A stretch of DNA of 49,389 bases. It comes from a virus (Duplodnaviria; Heunggongvirae; Uroviricota; Caudoviricetes). Below the pieces are notes generated by a model. That model was not told the DNA's origin, made no database searches, and saw nothing but the letters and a program-made list of their open reading frames with translations. The DNA lies in the IMG/VR virus record IMGVR_UViG_2851966386_000003, positions 1-49,389 of that record; one strand, written 5' to 3'. This document shows positions 2,811-49,389 of the stretch, one piece after another (positions within the stretch are counted from its first letter, which is position 1; each line of letters begins with the position of its first letter). The position numbers and the translations under genes are program-made.

Positions 2811-5800
2811 TTATGCCTGTACGCGCAGCGCTTCGAGACGGCGCATATCAAAATCGTTAAGTTCTTCGGTGTAGTCTTCGGTAATCGGCGCCGGCCATTC
2901 GCCAGTGTCAAAACCGTTCGCGATGGCACGCATTGCTTTGCGATATTCCAGCATGCCGAGTTCCAGCAGTTCTTCGGATGCCTCGATGATGGCGATCCAG
3001 TGGTAGTTCTCGTCTTTGTTGACGAATATCCAGAAGAACTGGTCAAGGGCTGCGGTTTCGCAGTACATAGCCGCGCTCAGGTGGTAATCGCGCTCGATGA
3101 TTTCCCGGTGCAATTTGGCGCGCAGGCCTTCCTGCTTGATGTTCCACATGCTGATGGTTTTAAGGTCCGCACCGATGCGCAGGCCGCCCATGTCAATCTC
3201 AAGGTCAGGACGCACACGAACTTCCAGCCCGGTTTCCTCATCAATGCCGAAATAGCTCACCTCGACGGCACGGCTCGGGTGCGTCAACAACTTGCCGGCG
3301 GTCGGGTGGTTCAACAGTGCTTTCTGAATGGCAAGTGCCGTAGCCAGCTGCTGGCGGGTTACCAGCACTTTTCCTTCAGGGTTTTCGCGCCATGCATCCA
3401 GCAACTCATCGGCAAACACGGCATCCGGTTTAACCGATTTCACGGCCTGAATCAGATCCGCCTTAGTACCTGATACTTTCAGCGGCTGCGCCTTCTGTGC
3501 ATCCTGCGCAACCATGTCAGGATTAATAAGTGCCAGCTGTTCCAGTAAGGCATCGCGGCTACCGCTGGTTTTCACCTGGGCGGGCATGGTCGCGTTGTAT
3601 TCCTTGATGCATGCCTTCATAGCGGTGGCAGTTTGCTTCTGTCCGTCTTCAATGCGCTGGAACTCAGCAGGTAAAGACATATAACCTTGGCCGGTTTCTT
3701 CAACTGATGTACCCAAAGGAACCTGGGCGGGCAGGGTCGCGTTGTATTCCTCCAGGAATCTCTTGATGTCATCTGCGCTGAGCAAAACCGGAAGCCCGTT
3801 GTTGTACTCGTCGATAAACGCACGGATCGTCGCAGTCGTGGTGAATGCGCCTTCCGGGATTTCGGGCTCGATGCTGAATTCTTTTTCCAGTTGATCAGGT
3901 TGCAGCGCCAGTGCATGCACTAGATTTCCCATATCCAGAACAGGGGAGCGTACCTTCTGGATGGTCTTGGATACGTGGCGCGCCTCGAAATACATCAGCG
4001 ATACCCGGGCATCTTTAACCATCGTGGAGCTGATGCCGTTAGCGGCGTGGTAGACCTCATTTGGCACGCCTTCATATCGACCAGGCTCGAAATACTCCGG
4101 CCATGCTGGCGCTGCATGTTCAGCCTCTTCCTCTACATCGCTATGAGCACTCTCGGAAACCTGGCTTTTCAGCACTTCGGCGGTAAGATCCGGGCAGCGT
4201 TCAGCCAGTATTTTGCTCATGTTCACGGCAGTTGTTTGCGCAGGAGGCTCATCAGCGCCTTTGCCTGCTGATACCGCATTATCATTTTCGTCTTCGACCG
4301 GCTGAGCCGTTTCCATCTGCACATCGCTGGTGGTTTCCCCGGAATTAGCTGGATGTAATTTTTCTTCTGCAGCGCGCTGGCGCGCCTGGTCCACGATAGA
4401 AAGTGCTGGTGCTGGTGCTGGTGCTGGTGCTGGTGCTGGCTGGCTATCCATCAGACCATCAATCGAAAAAACACCATTGCCCATGTTTGAAACTTCAGGC
4501 TGTTTGGGCTTGGTCAGGTCTTCGGTTATCCACTTCGGATCCGTGGGGTCACTGATACCTTCGACATATTCACCACGTTCGGCGGCCAGAACCTGATTAG
4601 CGTCAGGACGTTTCTTTTGAGCTTCTTTCACCAGTTCGGTGCCAATTACCTGAAAGTCAGTTGGGATAGTTTCCAGGTCAGGTACACCTTCATCTCCATC
4701 GATAGCCTTTTTCACAGCGTCCAGAGTGACGGCGGCAGATGAAACATGACCAGCTTTCTCAAGCGTCTCAGCAGAAGGGGCGTCATGCTTATGCTCGGTC
4801 AGGTTCGCATTGATATAGGTCTGCAGACTTACCGGGAAATGATGAATATCGCTGGTGGCGCCACGAATAAGGGCAAAAATGGCGGCGCGGGAATAATCCA
4901 GGATGCCTGCAACCTTGCGCAGCGCTGCAGACCATTCCTTGAACGGACTTTCTTTCTTCTGGACGATCTCTTTGGCCCGGCGGTGAATTGATGCCGGGAA
5001 ATTGTAGATATCGAAATCCATTGGCATTGTGGCCAGGGCTATTTCTACATCGAGCGTATCAAGGGTATGGGTGTAGTCAGGGTTGCGATCGGTTTTATTA
5101 CTGCCGCCAGCATTCGTAACTGCATCGGTTTTCATAACTGAAGAAATGTAGTTACCGGCAGCCCATTCCCTGGTGAGAATGCCGCGGTCGATCGCGTTCG
5201 TGGCGAACCACAACTTTGCAAACTGAATACGTTTGCCGAGCTCATGCCGTTTCCCTTCCGGGAAGACTTTTTTATTGGCGCTGGTGAATTTCCAGAGCGC
5301 CGGCATATCGTATTTTTTGATTTCATGGACATTCTCGGCGGCCAGAATCAGGTCCTGAACGGCTGCGTTATCAGTGTCCATTTCAAGAACTGACAGCTCC
5401 TGCCGGTGAGGCATGCTGATATGATAAACGTGGCGTTCTTCGGCCATATACTGCGCCAGCAGCTGGGTGCGAAAGGGGAGTTCTGCCACGTTAAAAAGCG
5501 CGCTTGAATCGTTCTGGTATTCATCGCTACCGAAAGTTTCCACGGTCTCACCTTGTGCCGCGTCGACAGTGGTATAGGCATCAACCGGCTCGCCAGTAAC
5601 GGCCCCAGAGGTTACTCCGGCATCATCGTGATGAACATCAGCAGGCGCCTGTCCTGGCTTCAAAGTCCAGGTGCGGCCATCGTCGCCGAGCTGGTAGCGT
5701 TCGCACCATGAGTAATCGAGAACACCCTCCGCCGGCAGGTCGTTGAATACCGGGAAATCGGTGCGAATAGGTTTTTGATAGTCTTTGCCGCGGCCTGTTT

Positions 5801-5930
5801 CGATCCCAGCGTCTTCCAGATCGACGTCGAGCTGCAGTAGGGCGCGAGCTTCTGATTTATTAGTGCGCCAGATTACGGCATCAGCTTTACCCGATTTTTG
5901 AGTCGCTTTTATCAGATAAAAATATTCCAT
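2811..5930 (-). CDS. recE: RecE-like exodeoxyribonuclease VIII
   Basis: ORF 2811..5996; N-terminal region aligns by eye with E. coli RecE (FPVFNDLPAEGVLDYSWCERYQL...WTLKPGQAP); start moved to ATG 5930 preceded by AGAGG SD. Confidence 0.8.
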   Translation of the reverse strand: MEYFYLIKATQKSGKADAVIWRTNKSEARALLQLDVDLEDAGIETGRGKDYQKPIRTDFPVFNDLPAEGVLDYSWCERYQLGDDGRTWTLKPGQAPADVHHDDAGVTSGAVTGEPVDAYTTVDAAQGETVETFGSDEYQNDSSALFNVAELPFRTQLLAQYMAEERHVYHISMPHRQELSVLEMDTDNAAVQDLILAAENVHEIKKYDMPALWKFTSANKKVFPEGKRHELGKRIQFAKLWFATNAIDRGILTREWAAGNYISSVMKTDAVTNAGGSNKTDRNPDYTHTLDTLDVEIALATMPMDFDIYNFPASIHRRAKEIVQKKESPFKEWSAALRKVAGILDYSRAAIFALIRGATSDIHHFPVSLQTYINANLTEHKHDAPSAETLEKAGHVSSAAVTLDAVKKAIDGDEGVPDLETIPTDFQVIGTELVKEAQKKRPDANQVLAAERGEYVEGISDPTDPKWITEDLTKPKQPEVSNMGNGVFSIDGLMDSQPAPAPAPAPAPALSIVDQARQRAAEEKLHPANSGETTSDVQMETAQPVEDENDNAVSAGKGADEPPAQTTAVNMSKILAERCPDLTAEVLKSQVSESAHSDVEEEAEHAAPAWPEYFEPGRYEGVPNEVYHAANGISSTMVKDARVSLMYFEARHVSKTIQKVRSPVLDMGNLVHALALQPDQLEKEFSIEPEIPEGAFTTTATIRAFIDEYNNGLPVLLSADDIKRFLEEYNATLPAQVPLGTSVEETGQGYMSLPAEFQRIEDGQKQTATAMKACIKEYNATMPAQVKTSGSRDALLEQLALINPDMVAQDAQKAQPLKVSGTKADLIQAVKSVKPDAVFADELLDAWRENPEGKVLVTRQQLATALAIQKALLNHPTAGKLLTHPSRAVEVSYFGIDEETGLEVRVRPDLEIDMGGLRIGADLKTISMWNIKQEGLRAKLHREIIERDYHLSAAMYCETAALDQFFWIFVNKDENYHWIAIIEASEELLELGMLEYRKAMRAIANGFDTGEWPAPITEDYTEELNDFDMRRLEALRVQA
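4405..4440. repeat. (GCTGGT)x6 tandem hexanucleotide repeat inside recE, encoding (PA)n linker on minus strand
   Basis: gctggtgctggtgctggtgctggtgctggtgctggc read directly; minus-strand translation PAPAPAPAPAPA. Confidence 0.9.
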
Positions 5931-6067
5931 GTGATAGCCTCTATTTTGGATGTAAAATCCCCAGGGCCATTGGTAGCGCCCATTCAGGGTGGTCATTGGT
6001 TTTGGTAATTTCCGGTGTAACTTTGGTCGGTGGCACCGGACGTACAGCCCGCTTCGGCGGGTTTACG

Positions 6068-6565: not shown

Positions 6566-6661
6566 TTAGAGAATCTCCCACAGTGCGCTGAAGAGCGCGA
6601 TCCAGATGAAGAGCCCAATAACTGCCGAAATGACCATGGCTCTGATGCCTTGTTTGCTCAT
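6566..6661 (-). CDS. Small hydrophobic membrane peptide (31 aa)
   Basis: Internal Met of ORF 6566..6748 preceded by AGAGG SD at 6 nt; product MSKQGIRAMVISAVIGLFIWIALFSALWEIL is a single TM helix. Confidence 0.3.
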   Translation of the reverse strand: MSKQGIRAMVISAVIGLFIWIALFSALWEIL

Positions 6662-6849
6662 TTCAACCTCTGCCTTGTCGCCGGCCAGCGGAACGTTTAC
6701 CACCTGACAACAATGCGTTTGTTGTCGATGTGATAAATGATGCAACATAAAGTTTCGGTTGTAAAGGTGAGTATGAAAGTATTTATTTCGCTAACGGGCA
6801 AAAAAAATGGCACCGCAAAGGTGCCATTGGTTGGAGGGGGTTACGTTTT

Positions 6850-7263
6850 CTATTTTTTTTGATTGTTTATGAGGTCGTAGACGTCGTTCTTAAGCAACTC
6901 GATATCGTGCAGGACACCTTTGGTGTGAAGGATAAGACGCAACTTTTCGGACTCAGGAAGTTGGTTAAAGAGCGAGAGTATCATTAGCTCCTTTTCGTCC
7001 AGGTCACGATTTGATGATAACGTCTGATCAGGCTTATCATCAGTTTCATCTGAGGGAAGAAAGAACCAGTGCTCTGGTTTTCCTGTTGCTGCAGCAAGTC
7101 GCTTTAACCTCTCACCACTCGCAACACTTTTCCCTTTAGCCCAATTTTGCACAGCAGTGTGCGAGAGCATGACCTTCTTGGCTAGATCGGATTTATTCCA
7201 GCCATTTTCAGTCATGACTTGTTGAATTCTTTTGGCAAAAACTGGGTAAGTGATCTCATTCAT
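6850..7263 (-). CDS. XRE-family HTH repressor (CI-like, no peptidase domain)
   Basis: 137-aa ORF with HTH (SDLAKKVMLSHTAVQNWAKGK); divergent from Cro-like gene. Confidence 0.7.
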   Translation of the reverse strand: MNEITYPVFAKRIQQVMTENGWNKSDLAKKVMLSHTAVQNWAKGKSVASGERLKRLAAATGKPEHWFFLPSDETDDKPDQTLSSNRDLDEKELMILSLFNQLPESEKLRLILHTKGVLHDIELLKNDVYDLINNQKK

Positions 7264-7374
7264 AAGTGCATTTTACAACCTAAGGTTTCACTCAGCACTA
7301 AAACAATTTCTTTCATTTGTTGAAACATAAACTTTCGTCGTATATGCTTCTCTCCATCAAACCAAGGAGAGCAC
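7264..7374. promoter_or_regulatory. Divergent promoter/operator region of the immunity switch
   Basis: 111-bp intergenic region between divergent repressor and cro-like genes; palindrome TTTCAtttgtTGAAA at 7311-7325; candidate -35 TTGAAA / -10 TATATG; AAGGAGA SD before ATG 7375. Confidence 0.5.
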
Positions 7375-7605
7375 ATGAACAAAGAGACGCAACAAAAAAT
7401 CAGTAAGGCAGCATCTCGTGCCTGTATCGGAAAGCACTTTGGCATCAGCGGTCAGGCTGTTGGTAAGTGGATTTACGAGAATGGAGTGCCTCAAAAACGC
7501 ATCGTCCCACTATGCCGTTTTCTTAACTGGGAAGTAACGCCTCATGAAATTGATCCTGAGGCGTACCCAAACCCAACTGACGGCCTGCCGAAACGGGAAG
7601 GCTGA
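7375..7605 (+). CDS. Cro/YdaS-like HTH regulator
   Basis: 76-aa ORF with HTH (GISGQAVGKWIYENGVPQKR); divergent from repressor. Confidence 0.6.
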   Translation: MNKETQQKISKAASRACIGKHFGISGQAVGKWIYENGVPQKRIVPLCRFLNWEVTPHEIDPEAYPNPTDGLPKREG

Positions 7606-7607
7606 CT

Positions 7608-8144
7608 ATGCAAACACTTTCCTTTCAACAAAATACCGGAATCACCACCGGCGCACTGATAAAGCGAAATCAGCTGAGAGAGTCAGATCACGACGCTATT
7701 CGCTCTGCTGTTCGCGCCTGGGCAGCAGCTGAAGGGCAGGATGTTGTCTCGGCATACATCATCGATGAGTGGCGACAGCAGGGCGGCGAGGAGATCGCGT
7801 TTCCTGATGATATCAGCCGTGCCCGCCAGAAGCTTTTTCGCTACCTGGACAACCCTGCCGACTCTGAGCGCTATCGCGAGTACGTTCGCCTTCTTACCCC
7901 GGCAATCATGGCCGTTCTTCCACTGGAGTTCCGACATCGTCTTATGCCTCAGGACGATATTTTGTCGCGCCTGTCTTCGGCCATGAAGGAATGCGCAGAA
8001 GCAAAGCAAGCGGTGATGCTGAACGCGCCAGAGCACCAGAAACTGAAGGAGGTGAGCGAGGGAATAGCGTCGCTTTTCAGGCTAATGCCTGAGCAGACAG
8101 GAGCGCTGATGACGATCGTGAGCTCAATGCTCGGCGTGATGTAA
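7608..8144 (+). CDS. CII-like/YdaT-like regulatory protein (putative)
   Basis: 178-aa ORF tightly coupled downstream of cro-like gene; assignment by position and loose resemblance only. Confidence 0.4.
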   Translation: MQTLSFQQNTGITTGALIKRNQLRESDHDAIRSAVRAWAAAEGQDVVSAYIIDEWRQQGGEEIAFPDDISRARQKLFRYLDNPADSERYREYVRLLTPAIMAVLPLEFRHRLMPQDDILSRLSSAMKECAEAKQAVMLNAPEHQKLKEVSEGIASLFRLMPEQTGALMTIVSSMLGVM

Positions 8145-9408: not shown

Positions 9409-10148
9409 AATCTATCGCAGAAAGCATGCACAACTTCGACCGTGAAAACTTCCAGCGAGTGGCTGCCGGGCTTCCGGAAATGCAGGACGAGCAGGCATTA
9501 AAGCGCCAGGCGGCCAAGACTGCGGAGATCTTCAACGAGCTGTTCCGCCAGCTGCTTGCCGTATTCCCGGTGCTGGCCAACAAATCTGTGGAAGACCTCA
9601 ACGAGATGCGTCGCCAGTGGTTGTTGGCGTTCAAAGAGAACGGGATCACCACAGTTGAGCAGGTTAACGCAGGGATGCGGGTTGCGCGCAAACAGGAAAA
9701 ACCATTCATGCCATCACCGGGACAGTTCGTCGCCTGGTGTCGTTCTGAGGAGGCGGTAACTGTAGGCCTGCCAGATGCGAGTGAGCTGGTTGAAATGGTT
9801 TACCAGTATTGCCGGACTCGCGGCCAGTATCCAGACGCTGAGTCGTACCCATGGCCTGAGCACAAAATCGAACCGTTAACGCTGAAACACAAAGCCTGCT
9901 ACTGGATGGTTACTGGCTTGTACGCAGACATGCGCGCAAACGGCCTCAGCGACACTGAGTTGCGACGTAAGGCGCAGGATGAGCTGCTGCGTATGGTTCG
10001 TCGCTTGAATGCCGGGGAAGTGATTCCCGAGCCGGTTAAGCAGATCCCAAAGCTTGGCGGACGTCCGCTTAGTAACGAGCAGGGCTTAAACAGAATCGCT
10101 GAAATCCGCGCGAAATTCGGTTTAGGCAGAGGGCGGAAACATGGCTAG
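9405..10148 (+). CDS. P: Replication protein P (helicase loader, lambda P-like)
   Basis: Long stretches match lambda P by eye (ITTVEQVNAGMRVAR...PSPGQFVAWCR...YPDAESYPW...GEVIPEPVKQ). Confidence 0.85.
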   Translation: MKSIAESMHNFDRENFQRVAAGLPEMQDEQALKRQAAKTAEIFNELFRQLLAVFPVLANKSVEDLNEMRRQWLLAFKENGITTVEQVNAGMRVARKQEKPFMPSPGQFVAWCRSEEAVTVGLPDASELVEMVYQYCRTRGQYPDAESYPWPEHKIEPLTLKHKACYWMVTGLYADMRANGLSDTELRRKAQDELLRMVRRLNAGEVIPEPVKQIPKLGGRPLSNEQGLNRIAEIRAKFGLGRGRKHG

Positions 10149-10476
10149 AGCATTATCAGCAGTTGAGCGCAGAGAGTACGTCCGCGCAGTGATTCGGATC
10201 ACCAGGCATCAGGGGCGCCTTACGACCACCGAGGCAATGAAAAAACTGGGGCTGAGCCGCGCTACTGTCCAGCGGTATTTTTCCGAAGCAGAAGCGACTG
10301 GCGAGGTTGTCCGGCATGGTCGTCTGGGGCTGTTCTGCGATCAGAGGGCCGTCATCGACTTTGACATGAAGCGTTTTGGCCTGGTGCCGAAAGTTGCTGT
10401 TGGGATGAATTACAGCCTGCTTGGCAGTCCTGTTTTTCAGCGAGTTTTAGATGTTCAGGAGGCTATTCATGGCTAA
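10141..10476 (+). CDS. Hypothetical protein (Ren-like position)
   Basis: 111-aa ORF overlapping end of P; position equivalent to lambda ren. Confidence 0.4.
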   Translation: MARALSAVERREYVRAVIRITRHQGRLTTTEAMKKLGLSRATVQRYFSEAEATGEVVRHGRLGLFCDQRAVIDFDMKRFGLVPKVAVGMNYSLLGSPVFQRVLDVQEAIHG

Positions 10477-11254
10477 GAATTCAATCGATGTATACGGTGC
10501 CAGCGGCAAAACAAATGTGCTCAATTTCGAGCCTGAAAACCTGCACCTTGTCACCGATAAGACCCACCCACTTTACGATGAGCGTGTACACCTGCCGATC
10601 GAGGAAGGAATGGTACTGAACATTGCGGAGCTGGGGGTACTGGAGCCAATCATCGTCTGGAAAGACCCTGAAACGGGGCTCACCTGCGTAGTTGTTGGCC
10701 GTCAGCGCGTTAAGCATACCCTGGAGGCAAATAAACTCCGTCTGAAAGAAGGCAAAGACCGACTGCTTGTTCCCGGAGTCGTTAAGCGCGGATCAGCAAA
10801 TCAGATGGCTAAATACATGGTCAGCGAAAACGAAATTCGCAGACCCGATACGCCGCTTGGCCGGGCTAAAAAAATGTCAGATGCCCTCGACCGCGGGCTC
10901 GATGAGGACGACATTGCGGTGTTGTTTGGCTGCAGCGTTCAGACAGTTCGAGCAACGCTCTCCCTCCTCGATGCTACTCAGGCCGTCAGGGAAGCGGTGG
11001 AGGCTGGCACAGTCACCGTTACCCAGGCGCGTCAGCTGGCATCGCTTAAACCCGAAGAGCAGCGGGCAAAAGTGGCAGAAATCAAGCTGGCGACAGCTGG
11101 CGCAACCGGCCATGAAAAAGCCCGGCGTCAGCGTCAGATCCTCGGTGATGCAAAGCCTCGCCTGAAAACCCGCAAAGAAATCACAAAAGCTCTGGAATCT
11201 GCCGAGGGTGAGTATGCGAGCGCACTCCGTTGGGTGCTCGGGGAGGCTGTATGA
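10469..11254 (+). CDS. ParB-like nuclease domain protein
   Basis: ParB N-terminal-domain-like region (IVWKDPETGLTCVVVGRQR) and HTH-like segment; AGGAGG SD 6 nt before ATG 10469. Confidence 0.55.
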   Translation: MAKNSIDVYGASGKTNVLNFEPENLHLVTDKTHPLYDERVHLPIEEGMVLNIAELGVLEPIIVWKDPETGLTCVVVGRQRVKHTLEANKLRLKEGKDRLLVPGVVKRGSANQMAKYMVSENEIRRPDTPLGRAKKMSDALDRGLDEDDIAVLFGCSVQTVRATLSLLDATQAVREAVEAGTVTVTQARQLASLKPEEQRAKVAEIKLATAGATGHEKARRQRQILGDAKPRLKTRKEITKALESAEGEYASALRWVLGEAV

Positions 11255-13835: not shown

Positions 13836-13862
13836 AAAACCCGCTTCGGCGGGTTTTTTATT
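13836..13862 (+). terminator. Rho-independent terminator
   Basis: aaacccgc ttcg gcgggttt followed by T-run. Confidence 0.65.
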
Positions 13863-13943
13863 ATGGAAAAACATCAATCTAAACATAAGCATGGTGTTGG
13901 CAAAAAGTGCTGCAGAGGGGTTGAACATTTCATGCAACCGGTA

Positions 13944-13963
13944 TACTGTTTATTTATACAGTA
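13944..13963. promoter_or_regulatory. LexA box (SOS operator) upstream of dinI homologue
   Basis: TACTGTTTATTTATACAGTA = CTGT-N8-ACAG palindrome, 20 bp upstream of dinI-like ATG. Confidence 0.65.
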
Positions 13964-13982
13964 TCTGTGTGAGGTGCTAACC

Positions 13983-14216
13983 ATGAAAGTTGAAGTCACA
14001 ATTGATAAACATAAAAAACTCCCTGATGGTGCCATACCTGCGCTTGAGCAAGAATTGTTGCGCCGCTTGTCCCAGTCTTATGATGACTGCAAATTAACCA
14101 TTCGATGCACAAGCAACGATGGCCTTAGCGTTTTGGGCGGCGCTGATGGCGATAAAAAGCGCGTTGAGCAAATTCTGCAAGAGACATGGGAAAGCGCAGA
14201 CGACTGGTTTTATTAG
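13983..14216 (+). CDS. dinI: DinI-family protein
   Basis: 77-aa product matches E. coli DinI along its length (MKVEVTIDK...LPDGAIPALEQELLRR...EQILQETWESADDWF); GAGGTG SD; real start is internal Met of ORF 13824..14216. Confidence 0.8.
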   Translation: MKVEVTIDKHKKLPDGAIPALEQELLRRLSQSYDDCKLTIRCTSNDGLSVLGGADGDKKRVEQILQETWESADDWFY

Positions 14217-14291
14217 TTTAATTGTGATGGTGGCGGCTCTTATCCCAGAGCATCGCATTCGCGTTTCCCTTGATGCTGCTACCCGTTTTTT

Positions 14292-14546
14292 ATGAGTGCG
14301 TCTGTATGTCGCTCAGGGGGTAATGTGACAGATGGTATTGACCCAAATCAGCAGGGGAATGTGTGGGCCACCATTACGGACGGATCCGGACATGTGTTGT
14401 GCTCATTCCGATTAGCTTTGAATGACCGAATCCTTTTATCGAATATTAATAGTGAAGTATCGGTTAGGAAAATTGCTAAAGATGAACACCTCTGGACAAG
14501 AAAATCATTAGTGGAGGTTATTAAGGAAATGAGCTCTAAAAATTGA
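14292..14546 (+). CDS. Hypothetical protein (weak call)
   Basis: 84-aa ORF without convincing SD. Confidence 0.2.
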   Translation: MSASVCRSGGNVTDGIDPNQQGNVWATITDGSGHVLCSFRLALNDRILLSNINSEVSVRKIAKDEHLWTRKSLVEVIKEMSSKN

Positions 14547-14629
14547 CTCATAACAGCTAGCTACATCATACTTGTAGTGCTGGTCTGAACAACCAGCCAC
14601 CTGACAGTAATGCGCCACCGGAGAACGTG

Positions 14630-15226
14630 ATGGCGCAGCTTCACTTAATAAAACAATCTCAAGGTATCCTGATCCCCGCGACGCCGGAGACCAGTGATTT
14701 TCTGCAATCAAAATGCAAGCTCGGATCCGTTCTGGAAGCCGATTATAAGCTTGTCCGCAATCCGGCGTTTCACCGCCGTTACTTTGCTTTACTCAATCTC
14801 GGCTTTGAATATTGGGAACCTACCGGCGGGGCGATTTCGTCTAACGAGCGCAGGCTTATCACAGGTTACGCCAAATACCTTGCTGCATATGGCGGGAGTG
14901 AATCGGCGTTGCTTGATGCCGCCGGGCAATATCTCGACCGGATAGCTGAGAAGCGATCCGGCTATATCAGTATTTGCAAATCCTTCGATGCTTACCGGGC
15001 GTGGGTCATCGTTGAAGCCGGCCACTATGACGCCATACAGCTACCGGACGGCACGCTGAAAAAACACCCTCGCAGCATTTCTTTTGCAAGCATGGACGAA
15101 TGCGAGTTCCAAGAACTGTACAAAGCATCGCTGGATGTTCTCTGGCGGTGGATCCTCTCTCGTTCATTCAACAGCCTGCAGGAAGCTGAGAACGCCGCCA
15201 ACCAGCTTTTAAGCTTCGCGGGGTGA
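14630..15226 (+). CDS. Nin-region phage protein of unknown function
   Basis: ORF 14627..15226; ATG 14630 after GGAGAA SD; nin-region position. Confidence 0.5.
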   Translation: MAQLHLIKQSQGILIPATPETSDFLQSKCKLGSVLEADYKLVRNPAFHRRYFALLNLGFEYWEPTGGAISSNERRLITGYAKYLAAYGGSESALLDAAGQYLDRIAEKRSGYISICKSFDAYRAWVIVEAGHYDAIQLPDGTLKKHPRSISFASMDECEFQELYKASLDVLWRWILSRSFNSLQEAENAANQLLSFAG

Positions 15227-44880: not shown

Positions 44881-45201
44881 TCATTGAAGTATACATTTTT
44901 CTCGTACAGAGCTCTTTATGGTGATTTGTTGAGAAAATTCTGGCATTTCCATAATCTGTATTTCAGCCTGCTCTGCCCATGATTTTGATGATGAGGTATC
45001 CAGCGAAATAGGGTAATCACCTACGATGACCTTTGCATTGTCATCATAACGCACTGACAATGTTGCTTTTACCTGACCAGTGTCATCCTGACGGACGCTT
45101 TCAACTGCATAAATTAAATCTATTTCAACATCCTTGTCGCAGAGATATCCACCGAGATAATGAATCTGGACTGTTTTTAATACTGACAATTTAAATGACA
45201 T
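44881..45201 (-). CDS. Fibre-associated protein co-transcribed with fibre 2
   Basis: 106-aa ORF starting 10 nt after fibre 2 stop; AAGGAA SD. Confidence 0.45.
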   Translation of the reverse strand: MSFKLSVLKTVQIHYLGGYLCDKDVEIDLIYAVESVRQDDTGQVKATLSVRYDDNAKVIVGDYPISLDTSSSKSWAEQAEIQIMEMPEFSQQITIKSSVREKCILQ

Positions 45202-45210
45202 AATGATTCC

Positions 45211-47748
45211 TTACGCAGGTAAGTAGTATTTTTCGCCGTAAATAAGCTTGCACAGACTGAATGCCGCTGCATCTGCGCCAGCCTTGTAACTGACGGTATA
45301 GCCGAGGTCATTCGGGTGGTTGAAATTAGGTGAGTTGAAAAGGGCTGACCATCCGTGTACCTCCACTCCCTGTTTGAACCAGGGGATTTCAGCTTCCAGT
45401 ACAAATGCGGATTTCTTCCGTGCTGTGGCTCGCGCCATGCTGTTATAGAGGCCAAACCGCACATCACCAACAACTTCAATACCACTCCCTGACCAGTCGG
45501 ACTCCACAAATGACCGTGACGGCGGCGGATCGAGTACTTCCTCAATAATGCTGTCCAGATTAATTTGCTGAATAGTGGTATTGATCAGGTCAGAGACCGG
45601 AATATTTTCTGCCACAGTAATAGTGTTACGATCAGCAGAAATGCCGGTAATTGTGTAGTCGCCTGCATTGCTGCCACCGACCCGAAGGATATGGCCTGGA
45701 CGGAGAATCTGGCCGCCCCAGCTGGTCGCTGCATTTCCTGTATCATATGAGAAAGCAGTACTAGAGATAGTATTACTGGCTGAATCAAACGTGAAGTTGC
45801 CCGTAACATTGAAAGTCCTCACAGGCCAGACAACGTTAAGGTTTCCCAGGGTAATGTTTTTGACGGTATTATGTTCAACATTGTTATGCGGCGTGGTACA
45901 AACAATCACGATCGCACCTTTTGCCGTGCACATATCAATAATGTTCTCAAGCTCTGCCTGCTGACGAGGGAAGGTCCTTCCACGATTAAAGTTCCCCACC
46001 GGAGCATCATTCATCCCCCCTACAATCAGAACGAAATCAGGCCAGTCGTCAGGGTTTTCACTGGTGAAATACGGTGAGTTTTGTAGCTGTGCTGGAAACT
46101 GCTGTAATGCCTGGCCAATTACGCACTGATTGTCGTCGATAAACTCAAATTCCCCATACGGTGATAAATATTTTTTCATCGCCTCAATAAATAGCGTATT
46201 CGGCGCAAAAGGCGCCCCCGGAACCCCGCCACCTGTTGAGCCTGCAGCTAATCCTACCGACGAACCCGTTGAAGTAAAAATAAGCCGTTTTTTTGTGACT
46301 GTTCTTACGCCATTACTAAACGAAATTTTACCAAATGGCGAAGTGTCGGCCGCTGTACCATCACCAATGAGTTTTTTGCGCAATTTAATATAGGGGTCAG
46401 TGACAGCACCCTGCAGAGTGGTGACATCGCTTTTGAGGTTCAGAATGTCTGTGGTCGGATCGCCTGAGAGCAAAAGTTTGAAATTGTTAACGGGAGAACC
46501 ACGATACTGAACCGTAACAGGTTTCGCTGCCTGCAGTTCGCCGCCCGTAAGCGCTGTGTTCGCCCCCTTCAGCAGATTGCGCGTTACCGAATTTCCGTAC
46601 AGGTCAGTTATAACAAGCGTCGTTGCGCCGGTATTAGCCACCACGGGTTCAAATGTTATCTGAGTACCGTCACCAAGCAGCCCGGGTATGGTTACGGACA
46701 CAGCGTTAGGGCTTGAGGAGTCACTTGTTACCGTCCCTTTGGTATACGCATTGAGAACCCGTGCCCTGTCACCTGGGTAGGTCAGCAAACGAAAATCACT
46801 GGCGGCCGCATTATACATGAGCAGATACGGGTATCCTGAGACAAGGTCTCCGACAGCCAGAGCAGTACCGCCAGCCTGTTTAATCGTACGTGCCGTCCAA
46901 CCGTTCAGCGACAGCGTCGGTGTTCTCGTGGTATTGGTTGCGCTGGGTGTAAAAACAAACGCGCGACCAGTGACCAGAACCTGTGATGATGTGGTGTTGG
47001 CAGTGTTTCCTGTATACGCGTCCGATGTCATTGTTACTGCCGAAACAATCGCAACGGAGTTCAACTCAACATTCAGCAGGCGTGCATTCAGCTCTGCCGC
47101 CACTGGGCCGGATGCGACAAGGACGAAATTGTTGGCGGTTCCTGTGCGGAACTCCATCAGTACCGGTTGATTCAGCAAAAGCTCATTACCAGCGAGCGCT
47201 GCGAAATTTTGTTTCTGGATTGCGCGAGTAACGGTATTCCCCTTCGCGTCTGTCACGGTCACACTGACCGCGCCGGTATTCAGGATGGGGGAAAGGAAAT
47301 AAATAAGACTGCTATCAACCAGCAGACCGGGAATAGTGATAGCGATAGTATTTGCCGCATTGCTGCTGACTGCCGTTGCAGCCTGATAGCCAGTTGGTAA
47401 CGCAGACAGCATTTTTCTCCCAGTGGCAACCAGCATACCGCCAACATTCATATACTCAATAGCCAGATATGCGTCATCAGGGCTACGCACATAGGTGCTG
47501 CTGCCTTCTGGAATATTCGCGATATCCGCCTGCGCCGCCGCCAGCGTCTGATACTGCTTACTGAGCGGGATCAGGTTCTGCCTGACCTCATCGTTTTTCG
47601 CCATCATCTGGCGCCAGGTATCGAGCGGTTCACCGCCGCGGTCGTTAACCGTACCTGCCGGACCGTTAACCAGCTCGTCAGCGCGCTTGACGTTATCCAG
47701 GAAAATTTCAGGCGTCGTCGTTCCCAAAGGCGGGTTAAGTTCGGCCAT
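45211..47748 (-). CDS. Tail fibre/spike protein 2 (alternative fibre)
   Basis: N-terminal ~110 aa paralogous to fibre 1 (MAELNPPLGTTTPEIFLDNVKRADELVNGP... vs MAFNPELGSTSPAVLLDNAERLDKLVNGP...); unrelated C-terminus; 5' UTR is inverted copy of fibre 1 5' UTR. Confidence 0.65.
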   Translation of the reverse strand: MAELNPPLGTTTPEIFLDNVKRADELVNGPAGTVNDRGGEPLDTWRQMMAKNDEVRQNLIPLSKQYQTLAAAQADIANIPEGSSTYVRSPDDAYLAIEYMNVGGMLVATGRKMLSALPTGYQAATAVSSNAANTIAITIPGLLVDSSLIYFLSPILNTGAVSVTVTDAKGNTVTRAIQKQNFAALAGNELLLNQPVLMEFRTGTANNFVLVASGPVAAELNARLLNVELNSVAIVSAVTMTSDAYTGNTANTTSSQVLVTGRAFVFTPSATNTTRTPTLSLNGWTARTIKQAGGTALAVGDLVSGYPYLLMYNAAASDFRLLTYPGDRARVLNAYTKGTVTSDSSSPNAVSVTIPGLLGDGTQITFEPVVANTGATTLVITDLYGNSVTRNLLKGANTALTGGELQAAKPVTVQYRGSPVNNFKLLLSGDPTTDILNLKSDVTTLQGAVTDPYIKLRKKLIGDGTAADTSPFGKISFSNGVRTVTKKRLIFTSTGSSVGLAAGSTGGGVPGAPFAPNTLFIEAMKKYLSPYGEFEFIDDNQCVIGQALQQFPAQLQNSPYFTSENPDDWPDFVLIVGGMNDAPVGNFNRGRTFPRQQAELENIIDMCTAKGAIVIVCTTPHNNVEHNTVKNITLGNLNVVWPVRTFNVTGNFTFDSASNTISSTAFSYDTGNAATSWGGQILRPGHILRVGGSNAGDYTITGISADRNTITVAENIPVSDLINTTIQQINLDSIIEEVLDPPPSRSFVESDWSGSGIEVVGDVRFGLYNSMARATARKKSAFVLEAEIPWFKQGVEVHGWSALFNSPNFNHPNDLGYTVSYKAGADAAAFSLCKLIYGEKYYLPA

Positions 47749-47770
47749 GTTTTTTGCTCCAAAAAGAGGC

Positions 47771-47796
47771 TTCGCGCAAACGAGGGTTTGAGCGAA
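47771..47796. promoter_or_regulatory. Candidate invertase recombination site (right), inverted copy
   Basis: ttcgcgcaaacg-ag-ggtttgagcgaa, reverse complement of left site with one substitution. Confidence 0.6.
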
Positions 47797-47839
47797 AGAG
47801 CGGAGCTTTTTACAATCAGTTATTTCAAGGAGTTAGATA

Positions 47840-48409
47840 GTGCTGATTGGCTATGCGAGGGTATCAACCGGGGATCAAAACCTCGACTTACAGAAAAATG
47901 CGCTGATCCGCGCAGAATGTGAGCTGGTTTTTGAGGATATGGCCAGCGGGAAAAATGCCCAGCGGCCAGGGTTAAAGCGCGCCTTACGCAGGCTTAAGCC
48001 CGGCGATGTGCTGGTGGTCTGGAAACTTGACCGACTGGGCCGAAGCGTGCGTGACCTGATTACACTCGTGTCGGAGCTGCAGGCGCGCGGGGTGAATTTC
48101 CGCAGCCTGACTGACAGCATCGACACCTCGACGCCTGCGGGACGTTTCTTCTTCCACGTCATGAGCGCCCTGGCGGAAATGGAAAGAGAGCTGATTGTCG
48201 AGCGTACACGAGCGGGTTTAGCCGCAGCGAGGGAGCAGGGGAGAGTCGGCGGCCGCCGCCGGGTAATGACTGAAGTAGTGGTGGAGCGGTGCCGCAGAAT
48301 GCTGGAGAACGGCGCTACCCGGCACCAGATCGCAGATGTGATAGGGGTGGGAGTGAAGACGATTTACAAATATTTGCCAGTACAATACAGCGATAAAAAA
48401 TCCCCTTGA
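47840..48409 (+). CDS. Serine DNA invertase (Gin/Hin/Pin/Cin family)
   Basis: Product aligns with Gin from memory (MLIGYARVSTGDQN...LVVWKLDRLGRS...FRSLTDSIDTSTPAGRFFFHVMSALAEMERELIVERT); C-terminal HTH. Confidence 0.85.
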   Translation: MLIGYARVSTGDQNLDLQKNALIRAECELVFEDMASGKNAQRPGLKRALRRLKPGDVLVVWKLDRLGRSVRDLITLVSELQARGVNFRSLTDSIDTSTPAGRFFFHVMSALAEMERELIVERTRAGLAAAREQGRVGGRRRVMTEVVVERCRRMLENGATRHQIADVIGVGVKTIYKYLPVQYSDKKSP

Positions 48410-48930: not shown

Positions 48931-48950
48931 TACTGTATATAAAAACAGTA
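48931..48950. promoter_or_regulatory. LexA box of umuD
   Basis: TACTGTATATAAAAACAGTA (CTGT-N8-ACAG), identical as I recall to the E. coli umuDC operator, 20 bp before umuD ATG. Confidence 0.8.
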
Positions 48951-48969
48951 TTTTGTGAGCGAGTTTATT

Positions 48970-49389
48970 ATGCAGTTCTACACGCCCGTTGAGTTACGCC
49001 AGATCATGCTGCTCCCGTTGTACAGTGACCTTGTGCAGTGCGGCTTTCCTAGTCCAGCGCAGGATTATGTTGAGCAACGTATTGATCTGAACGAGTTGCT
49101 CGTTAACCACCCAAGTGCGACGTATTTTGTCAAAGCCGCCGGCGACAGCATGAAAGACGCAGGCATAGGGGAAGGTGATCTTCTGGTCGTGGATAGCTCA
49201 AGAACAGCAGTTCATGGCGATATCGTTATTGCTGCTGTGGATGGGGAATTCACCGTTAAGAAGCTGCAGCTGCATCCGCGGGTTCAGCTTAACCCAATGA
49301 ACCCTGCATATTCGCCAATAGTCGTCGGTAGTGAGGACACTCTCGACGTGTTCGGGGTGGTTACGTACATCATTAAATCAGCTGGCTAA
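48970..49389 (+). CDS. umuD: UmuD (error-prone polymerase V subunit, LexA-like S24 peptidase)
   Basis: Product matches E. coli UmuD ([27 protein letters not shown]...[13 protein letters not shown]...[19 protein letters not shown]); start is internal ATG of ORF 48955..49389. Confidence 0.85.

Follow-up and report, generated by a model that had tools for sequence, protein, structure and literature searches.

A Gifsy-like prophage immunity switch with a candidate LexA-controlled antirepressor and a predicted three-operator control region

How does a prophage leave the lysogenic state when its repressor carries no peptidase domain, and which sequence does such a repressor recognize? Both questions are raised by positions 7264-7374 of a 49,389-nucleotide stretch of Caudoviricetes DNA (IMG/VR record IMGVR_UViG_2851966386_000003, positions 1 to 49,389; hereafter the window), which separate a repressor gene from a divergent Cro-like gene. 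A first-pass annotation, made from the letters alone, had described this gap as a compact divergent immunity switch, had named the palindrome TTTCAtttgtTGAAA overlapping candidate -35/-10 elements as its operator, and had suggested that induction may depend on an antirepressor, for which the prophage should be searched. Judging from its sequence, the window is most likely a Gifsy-like lambdoid prophage of Klebsiella pneumoniae, with 7264-7374 as its right operator (OR) region, and we consider it likely that the locus works as a GtgR-type switch relieved by a LexA-controlled, GftA-like antirepressor. This reading draws on homology, synteny, motif architecture and conservation, whereas every binding or regulatory step is taken from Gifsy-1, Gifsy-2 and lambda.

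The repressor and the SOS-type induction module

The genes and the gap that make up the core of the switch are as follows.

7264 to 7374: repressor-cro intergenic control region (OR), holding the PR-like rightward promoter, a putative repressor maintenance promoter (PRM) and three operator-like sites
6850 to 7263, minus strand: repressor, 137 amino acids (aa), GtgR/GfoR-family non-cleavable type (Pfam, homology and AlphaFold2 model)
7375 to 7605, plus strand: Cro-like gene, 76 aa (phrog_35, E 5e-15)

The gap is exactly 111 bp long, as the first-pass annotation had it, lying between the repressor open reading frame (ORF; 6850-7263, minus strand) and the Cro-like ORF (7375-7605, plus strand), and has a GC content of 36%. 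Its description as a compact divergent switch of the cI/cro type is supported, and so is the earlier claim that the repressor lacks an S24 peptidase domain. The only Pfam domain found in the protein is HTH_3 (residues 13-67), with no Peptidase_S24 match at E <= 0.01, and neither an Ala-Gly nor a Cys-Gly bond occurs in its sequence. The AlphaFold2 model (mean predicted local distance difference test score 76) is all-helical: a disordered linker (74-84) joins a five-helix helix-turn-helix (HTH) domain (residues 7-68) to a C-terminal pair of long helices (90-135); because the model has no beta strand, the repressor is predicted to be devoid of an S24 fold. The HTH domain superposes on the N-terminal domains of P22 c2 and 434 repressor at a root mean square deviation of ~1 A over 60 residues. 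Full-length alignment with Gifsy-2 GtgR gives 62% identity and 83% similarity (137/136 aa, E 5e-64), and the best tblastn matches of the repressor among phage genomes are Gifsy-2 and LT2 Gifsy-1. Comparison with PDB sequences returned weak HTH matches only (HipB, 434 repressor) and no solved whole-protein homologue, and a fold search with the model gave no match at E <= 0.001, leaving a generic HTH fold and a weak resemblance to SinR.

The protein is not an autocleaving repressor of the lambda cI type. Induction by RecA-stimulated self-cleavage of the repressor is accordingly given almost no weight: nothing in the sequence speaks for it, the part of the protein beyond the HTH domain is helical and only 70 residues long, the S24 domain and the scissile bonds named above are missing, and mitomycin C induction leaves the homologues GtgR/GftR, GfoR and GfhR uncleaved (PMC3121763). 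The sole S24 peptidase in the window is a UmuD-like ORF at 48955-49389, which lacks an HTH domain and is situated past the tail-fibre/invertase end of the prophage.

This ORF was also considered in its own right as a hidden cleavable repressor and rejected, since it consists of an S24 domain without HTH and sits outside the phage regulatory region. It runs off the end of the window and is preceded, at a distance of 7 nt, by a second perfect LexA box, CTGTATATAAAAACAG (48933-48948), which is presumably the same box as that of E. coli umuDC. The ORF is probably umuD-like and part of a host umuDC locus or of cargo flanking the prophage, not a phage repressor.

A separate observation concerns the C-terminal helices. 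Among 22 family members down to 47% identity, invariant residues cluster there (LD..E...L.LFNQ.PE.EKL; repressor residues 88-125, window positions ~6886-7002), making this segment more conserved than the recognition helix. The helices may form a dimerization or antirepressor-contact surface, which could explain antirepressor cross-reactivity.

Searching the prophage for an antirepressor turned up a GftA homologue at 14325-14546, embedded in the following module.

13836 to 13857, plus strand: intrinsic terminator, predicted to shield the SOS operon from upstream transcription
13921 to 13963, plus strand: SOS promoter, -35 TTGAAC (13921-13926), -10 TATACT/TACTGT, overlapped by a LexA box
13983 to 14216, plus strand: dinI homologue, 77 aa, first gene of the putative LexA-controlled operon (Pfam DinI, 91.5 bits)
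14325 to 14546, plus strand: candidate antirepressor (GftA homologue), 73 aa, GUG start, Shine-Dalgarno sequence AGGGGG at 14315-14320 (phrog_4847)
14627 to 15226, plus strand: irsA homologue (DUF1367), third gene of the operon (PF07105; 77% identical to Gifsy-2 STM1020)

The module (13836-15226) is located 6.7 kb to the right of the repressor gene, outside the immunity region. Its LexA box, TACTGTTTATTTATACAGTA at 13944-13963, contains one of two CTGT-N8-ACAG motifs in the window (13946-13961), and this perfect box is 21 nt ahead of the dinI start codon. The counterpart promoter and LexA region of Gifsy-2 (TTGAAT...TATACTGTgtttatatACAG) has the same layout, with a terminator seen there too, and the DinI proteins are 64% identical. 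The candidate antirepressor aligns with Gifsy-2 GftA (STM1020.1n) without gaps over 73/73 aa at 41% identity and 64% similarity (E 2e-20), the two ORFs agreeing in length, start codon and position. It matches no Pfam family. Antirepressors of the Ant, KilAC, Bro or Rha types were absent from the 40 ORFs, all outside the structural block at 22983-44836, that were scanned against PHROGs.

What such a module does is known from the Salmonella phages. Induction of Gifsy prophages is abolished by lexA3 and needs a LexA-controlled locus ~1.3 kb past the replication genes, with a terminator ahead of it and dinI as its first gene (PMC3121763); the terminator precedes the SOS operon in Gifsy-1, -2 and -3 alike (PMC3121763). 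GftA and GfoA are encoded by a small GUG-start ORF between dinI and irsA, bind their repressor tightly and free the operator DNA (PMC3121763). The proposal of antirepressor-dependent induction thus finds good support in homology and synteny, because the repressor is a GtgR homologue and the window carries the matching LexA-box/dinI/gftA-like/irsA module. By analogy, DNA damage would lead to RecA-stimulated cleavage of host LexA and open the promoter at 13921-13963; transcription of the dinI/gftA-like/irsA operon would then supply the 73-aa antirepressor, which would bind the repressor and remove it from DNA. The repressor itself, having no peptidase domain, would stay uncleaved, and Cro would subsequently lock the switch in the lytic state.

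To place the locus among its relatives we used the 80 loci obtained by scanning IMG/VR with an alignment, a contig scan with the single repressor protein having returned 5. Control regions from 87 related loci were reduced to 51 non-redundant ones, of which 50 could be registered on landmarks and one (L007) could not. For the 98-99% identical proteins, source names indicate Klebsiella pneumoniae, and the family extends to Enterobacter, Citrobacter, Salmonella, Leclercia, Kluyvera and E. coli. The exact immunity region is present in several IMG/VR contigs. Megablast of positions 6800-7650 gave no match in complete E. coli genomes and just short matches at the cII end in deposited phage genomes; at >=85% identity the immunity region is therefore absent from those two collections.

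For 59 related loci, at least 8.5 kb of sequence is available on the cro side. A GftA-like ORF is present in 45 of them, and 41 of these 45 have a LexA-type box no more than 700 nt upstream of it. The distance between box and ORF is ~365 nt where dinI intervenes and ~180-200 nt where it does not. Three loci (L008, L012, L017) pair a repressor of 95-100% identity with a GftA-like gene of 89-99% identity.

Several points weigh against this account of induction. The antirepressor homologue is just 41% identical to GftA, and pairing between antirepressor and repressor is specific, GfoA being inactive on GtgR (Lemire et al., PMC3121763); for these two reasons, cognate pairing is an assumption here. 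Furthermore, in four loci whose repressor is 98.5-100% the same (L009, L010, L015, L018) the GftA-like gene is only 55-58% identical and lacks a LexA box upstream, so the type of repressor does not dictate the induction module. In these four (L018, positions 3600-4700, may serve as the example) the same terminator is followed by a ~700-bp AT-rich region and then by a longer GftA-like ORF. L059 shows the converse, an 89% identical GftA-like gene beside a repressor only 66% identical. Taken together, the mixed pairings indicate that the modules reassort.

These same observations lend something to another route of induction, in which the local GftA-like protein would be inactive and the signal would come from a trans-acting antirepressor of a co-resident prophage or from a non-SOS stimulus. 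Action in trans on non-cognate repressors is documented, with Fels-1 FsoA acting on GtgR and GfoA on GfhR (PMC3121763). We regard this route as unlikely: the LexA box/dinI/gftA/irsA operon is complete and intact in the window, in its canonical position, and in L008, L012 and L017 a highly similar repressor is found together with a highly similar GftA-like gene. The LexA-controlled antirepressor is accordingly the reading retained below, and 14325-14546 would be the gene on which induction by DNA-damaging antibiotics should depend.

Promoters and predicted operators of the control region

Which sequence would the repressor bind, and how would it shut the early promoters? The elements of the gap are listed here.

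7320 to 7348, plus strand: PR-like promoter of the cro-like/cII-like operon (consensus scan; position kept in relatives)
7270 to 7275, minus strand: putative -10 (TAAAAT) of PRM (conservation in relatives)
7311 to 7325: the palindrome TTTCAtttgtTGAAA, spanning from the right arm of O2 across the O2-O1 spacer to the left arm of O1 (the latter doubling as the PR -35)
7322 to 7336: putative operator O1, GAAAC-ATAAA-CTTTC, between the PR -35 and -10
7300 to 7314: putative operator O2, AAAAC-AATTT-CTTTC
7275 to 7289: putative operator O3, ACAAC-CTAAG-GTTTC, overlapping the putative PRM -10

In a consensus scan PR was the sole sigma-70-like promoter on the plus strand of the gap, with -35 TTGAAA (7320-7325), a spacer of 17 nt and -10 TATGCT (7343-7348). 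Its layout recurs in relatives as TTGNAA, 17 nt and TATNCT/TAATCT, and the Cro-like start codon is preceded by a strong Shine-Dalgarno sequence, AAGGAG (7364-7369). On the minus strand, TAAAAT (7275-7270) lies 6 nt ahead of the repressor ATG at 7263, a distance kept in nearly all relatives, and the sequence ATTTTACAAC is conserved throughout the specificity groups. The repressor start region shows neither a Shine-Dalgarno sequence nor a recognizable -35. With TAAAAT only 6 nt from the ATG and no ribosome-binding site, PRM is probably weak and its mRNA leaderless, as for lambda cI from PRM.

The exact sequence at 7311-7325 is as the first-pass annotation had given it, and its right arm does cover the PR -35; the claimed overlap with the -10 does not hold, as this element sits 18 bp past the palindrome. 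An exact TTTCA-N5-TGAAA occurs nowhere else in the window than at this match, TTTCATTTGTTGAAA. With 10 bp between its half-site centres it has a geometry usual for HTH dimers, and every close relative has a TTTC...GAAA core. Each of these features would suit a single dyad operator that blocks PR by covering its -35.

The comparison with relatives speaks against that assignment, which we judge improbable. Among relatives sharing the recognition helix SHTAVQNWAKG, the distance from TTTC to GAAA is 7, 8, 9 or 10 bp, and all control-region indels in the 50 relatives are confined to the interior of the palindrome, that is, to the O2-O1 spacer. Positions 7315-7319 vary under the same repressor: the A at 7315, the fifth base pair, is a G in most phages with a 98.5-100% identical repressor, and the interior reads TTTCGtttgt, TTTCGttcgt or TTTCGttagt among them. 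The TTTC-N7-GAAA form has no copy near the leftward promoter, where the form GAAA-N7-TTTC or AAC-N5-GTT occurs instead. Nor is the palindrome remarkable in itself. Of mononucleotide shuffles of the gap, 67% contain a perfect inverted repeat with 5-bp arms and a 0-10 bp spacer, as do 63% of 111-bp tiles cut from the window; the gap itself has four. A palindrome of this size is not beyond chance, and since two thirds of the shuffles of this 36%-GC gap contain such a repeat, it is no evidence on its own. An inverted-repeat search of the gap with 6-nt seeds reported none because the arms are only 5 bp long.

An 'inside-out' repeat of this kind arises automatically wherever two palindromic sites adjoin, and TTTCAtttgtTGAAA is probably not the real binding site of the repressor: the spacing is variable and the inner bases differ under the same repressor, which would place the original operator call out of register. 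In the opposite register lie three 15-bp sites of the form nAAAC-N5-STTTC, whose N5 spacing is invariant among the 50 non-redundant relatives. Their centres are 25 bp (O3-O2) and 22 bp (O2-O1) apart. The first distance is kept in 49 of the 50 relatives, the second ranges from 20 to 25 bp, and the position of O1 relative to the -35 is fixed in 50/50. The spacing of the lambda OR operators is 23-24 bp. The sequence of the sites, that of O1 included, varies with the recognition-helix group, and the arms take the forms GAAAC/CTTTC, GCAAC/GTTTC and GGAAC/GTTTT, with GGAAC...GTTTT in the RK..ASG group of Gifsy-2 and GAAAA...TTTTC in a QQ group. The SHTAVQNWSKG group (ACAACCTTTGGTTTC, CCAACTATTTGTTTC, GCAACTTAAAGTTTC) displays the pattern most clearly. 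L006, the most distant locus, shows a joint change of the two O3 arms, from AAC..GTT to AAG..CTT. We therefore favour, with some reserve as to register, the three 15-mers at 7275-7289, 7300-7314 and 7322-7336 as the true operators, in a lambda-like OR3/OR2/OR1 layout.

A second set of sites is expected at the leftward early promoter, and candidates are indeed found downstream of the repressor gene.

6806 to 6828, minus strand: intrinsic terminator just past the repressor stop codon
6737 to 6765, minus strand: PL-like leftward promoter facing the recE/recT/xis/int side (consensus scan; function putative)
6742 to 6756: putative operator OL1, GCAACATAAAGTTTC, in the spacer of the PL-like promoter
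6775 to 6789: putative weaker operator OL2, GAAAGTATTTATTTC (position weight matrix rank 6 in the window)

The PL-like promoter, beyond the repressor terminator, consists of -35 TTTACA (6765-6760), 17 nt and -10 CATCAT (6742-6737). A position weight matrix built solely from the three OR sites was scanned over the 49-kb window; O1 was the top match and OL1 the best match outside the training set, at 18.3 bits against 17.8-19.7 for the training sites, a score reached anywhere in 7 of 200 random 49-kb sequences. OL1 agrees with O1 at 13/15 positions and lies ~100 bp past the repressor stop, where PL and OL would be expected. Most relatives have an operator-like 15-mer ~90 nt past the stop (GAAAC...GTTGC/GTTGT in the QN-helix groups), and distant relatives, at ~75% identity and below, have a second site ~60 nt past it with a group-specific sequence; the permissive pattern used on the relatives missed the window's own site at 6775-6789. 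At sequence level the locus thus displays three OR sites at about two-turn spacing together with OL matches, the architecture of a tripartite operator.

A third OL site was considered at 6707-6721 (ACAACAATGCGTTTG), which fits the operator pattern. Its sequence is identical in heteroimmune relatives, e.g. L058, and for this reason it is probably no immunity-specific operator. Also in this region, a mechanically listed 60-aa ORF (6566-6748, minus strand) begins within the predicted PL promoter, and a 31-aa hydrophobic peptide starting at an internal ATG near 6661, with a GAGG Shine-Dalgarno sequence, is the likelier gene product.

The operator map meets objections of its own. The model is derived from the same sequence family that was used to test it, and conservation alone is weak evidence since close relatives share ancestry. 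The left arm of O1 falls on the PR -35 and that of O3 on the PRM -10 flank, and their conservation could therefore partly be that of the promoters. The palindromes of O1 and O2 are imperfect (GAAAC against CTTTC), with symmetry limited to GAAA-N7-TTTC, and the OL sites stand 33 bp apart instead of 22-25 bp.

Under the three-operator layout, dimers of the 137-aa repressor would occupy O1, O2 and O3 in the lysogen. O1, between the -35 and -10 of PR, would block the cro-like/cII-like/replication operon; O2, centred ~44 bp upstream of the repressor start, could stimulate the weak repressor promoter; O3, over the -10 of that promoter, would provide negative autoregulation. The same repressor would shut the PL-like promoter through OL1 and OL2.

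Neighbouring genes and implications

To the left of the repressor the window carries int, xis, recT, a 1061-aa recE-like gene and small ORFs; to the right follow cro, the cII-like gene, the O and P replication genes, dinI, Q, lysis and structural genes, tail fibre and invertase. This arrangement is collinear with that of Gifsy-2. Besides its phrog_35 match, the Cro-like protein shares 58% identity with the Cro analogue of Gifsy-2, weakly matches the solved Cro 3bd1 and scores 28.5 bits against the YdaS family, just below the Pfam cut-off of 30. The second gene of the operon is the following.

7608 to 8144, plus strand: cII-like regulator of the YdaT family, 178 aa (PF06254 YdaT, 94 bits, cut-off 21)

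It matches phrog_163 'CII-like' (E 1e-56) and the structure of CP-933P YdaT, 8bt1 (E 4e-4), and is unrelated to the cII analogue of Gifsy-2. No YdaT box (TTGATT-N6-AATCAA) was found near the cro/cII junction (7608), the best matches lying elsewhere and at chance level. In the 3' part of the cro-like gene, 7537-7564, we noticed an inverted repeat with 11-nt arms (ACGCCTCATGA / TCCTGAGGCGT, 6 nt apart) and no T run after it; a regulator site and an RNA structure are both possibilities.

Other features were noted along the way. The recE-like gene (2811-5996, minus strand) encodes a (Pro-Ala)n linker at ~4395-4440, stemming from a short GCTGGT-type tandem repeat. Past the replication genes come a Ren-like/DNA-binding ORF (10141-10476) and a ParB-like protein (10451-11254); homologues of the partition gene parA have been noted in Gifsy-1 and Gifsy-3, where a plasmid-like latency phase was speculated upon (Lemire et al., PMC3121763). 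Near the right end, a DNA invertase (47840-48409, phrog_125) adjoins a tail-fibre gene (45211-47748, minus strand) and a small ORF (44881-45201, minus strand), both of which run opposite to the remaining structural genes. The whole of 44881-48409 looks like an invertible host-range segment of the Gin/Cin type.

Two readings of the family-wide variation, an immunity code and a swappable induction cassette, deserve mention, although we hold them only tentatively and think them rather less probable than not. As for the code, operator positions 2 and 14 may change in step with residues in or just after the recognition helix: they are A/T in QN..AKG phages, C/T in QN..SKG phages and G/T in RK..ASG and RK..ANG phages. 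As for the cassette, one and the same repressor (98.5-100% identical) may come with either the LexA-box/dinI/gftA module or a LexA-less divergent GftA-like gene, and could therefore be wired to a non-SOS signal. Of modest import, a common immunity type of Klebsiella and Enterobacter prophages can be assigned to the Gifsy antirepressor paradigm. The predicted map of three OR and two OL sites concerns a family in which, as far as we found, operators have been published only for DicA (and mapped for RacR). The locus also illustrates that an eye-catching palindrome may come about simply because two real sites lie next to each other.

Comparison with known immunity systems

Several other switches invite comparison. 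The closest whole-chain match to the AlphaFold2 model is the SinR chain of the SinR/SinI complex (1b0n), with weak template modelling scores of 0.41/0.53. SinR consists of an HTH and a helical C-terminal domain, to which SinI binds; the fold match is of low confidence and serves as an analogy only. Similarly, Tum of coliphage 186 and AntC of N15 are SOS-controlled small proteins that inactivate a non-cleavable repressor, but they show no detectable homology to the proteins of the window and a different gene order, and Tum is fused to a DinI-like half (PMC3121763).

With lambda the window shares a divergent repressor/cro pair, three predicted operators 22-25 bp apart, a second predicted set at the leftward early promoter, a putative weak promoter beside the middle operator and a repressor mRNA that is probably leaderless. 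It differs from lambda in that the repressor has no S24 autocleavage domain and no sequence similarity past the HTH fold, and O1 covers the PR -35 and spacer where the lambda site covers the PR -10. Induction here would proceed through LexA and an antirepressor and would in principle be reversible.

The cryptic prophages Qin (DicA/DicC/Rem), Rac (RacR/YdaS/YdaT) and CP-933P (PaaR2/YdaS/YdaT) each have a divergent Cro-like gene and a short non-cleavable HTH repressor, assigned to the same family by Lemire et al. (PMC3121763). DicA has lambda-like operator sets at its PR and PL equivalents and activates its own consensus-less promoter from Oc (PMC10448788, PMC3441716); Rem, a small GfoA-like antirepressor, acts on it (PMC10448788, PMC3441716), LexA control of Rem not having been reported. 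The sequence of Oc (TTGTTAGTCATAACTAACAA) differs from that of the sites in the window. The cII-like gene is of the YdaT family, as in Rac and CP-933P (PMC11879457), but the YdaT box of those prophages is missing near the cro/cII junction.

The closest counterparts are Gifsy-2 and LT2 Gifsy-1, which have the same gene order: int-xis-recT-recE-small ORFs-repressor on one side, divergent cro-cII-O-P and terminator-LexA box-dinI-antirepressor-irsA on the other. Identities to Gifsy-2 are 62% for the repressor, 58% for Cro, 64% for DinI, 41% for the antirepressor and 77% for IrsA, and the control regions are collinear (ATTTTACAACC..., -35 TTGNAA, 17 nt, -10). The recognition helix is SHTAVQNWAKG here and SHTSVRKWASG in Gifsy-2, and the operator arms are GAAAC/CTTTC and GGAAC/GTTTT, respectively; as both differ, the two phages are presumably heteroimmune. 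They also differ in the cII-like gene (YdaT-type here, unrelated to its Gifsy-2 analogue), the helicase loader (lambda P-like here, DnaC-like in Gifsy-2) and the host (Klebsiella and Salmonella). Overall, with a short GtgR-like HTH repressor, a terminator followed by a LexA box and dinI, and a non-AUG antirepressor ORF ahead of irsA, the locus belongs, by all testable sequence-level features, to the antirepressor-induced immunity systems of the Gifsy type. Mildly new are the operator map and the differing antirepressor cassettes under the same repressor, some of them LexA-less; the rest is the known Gifsy-type switch.

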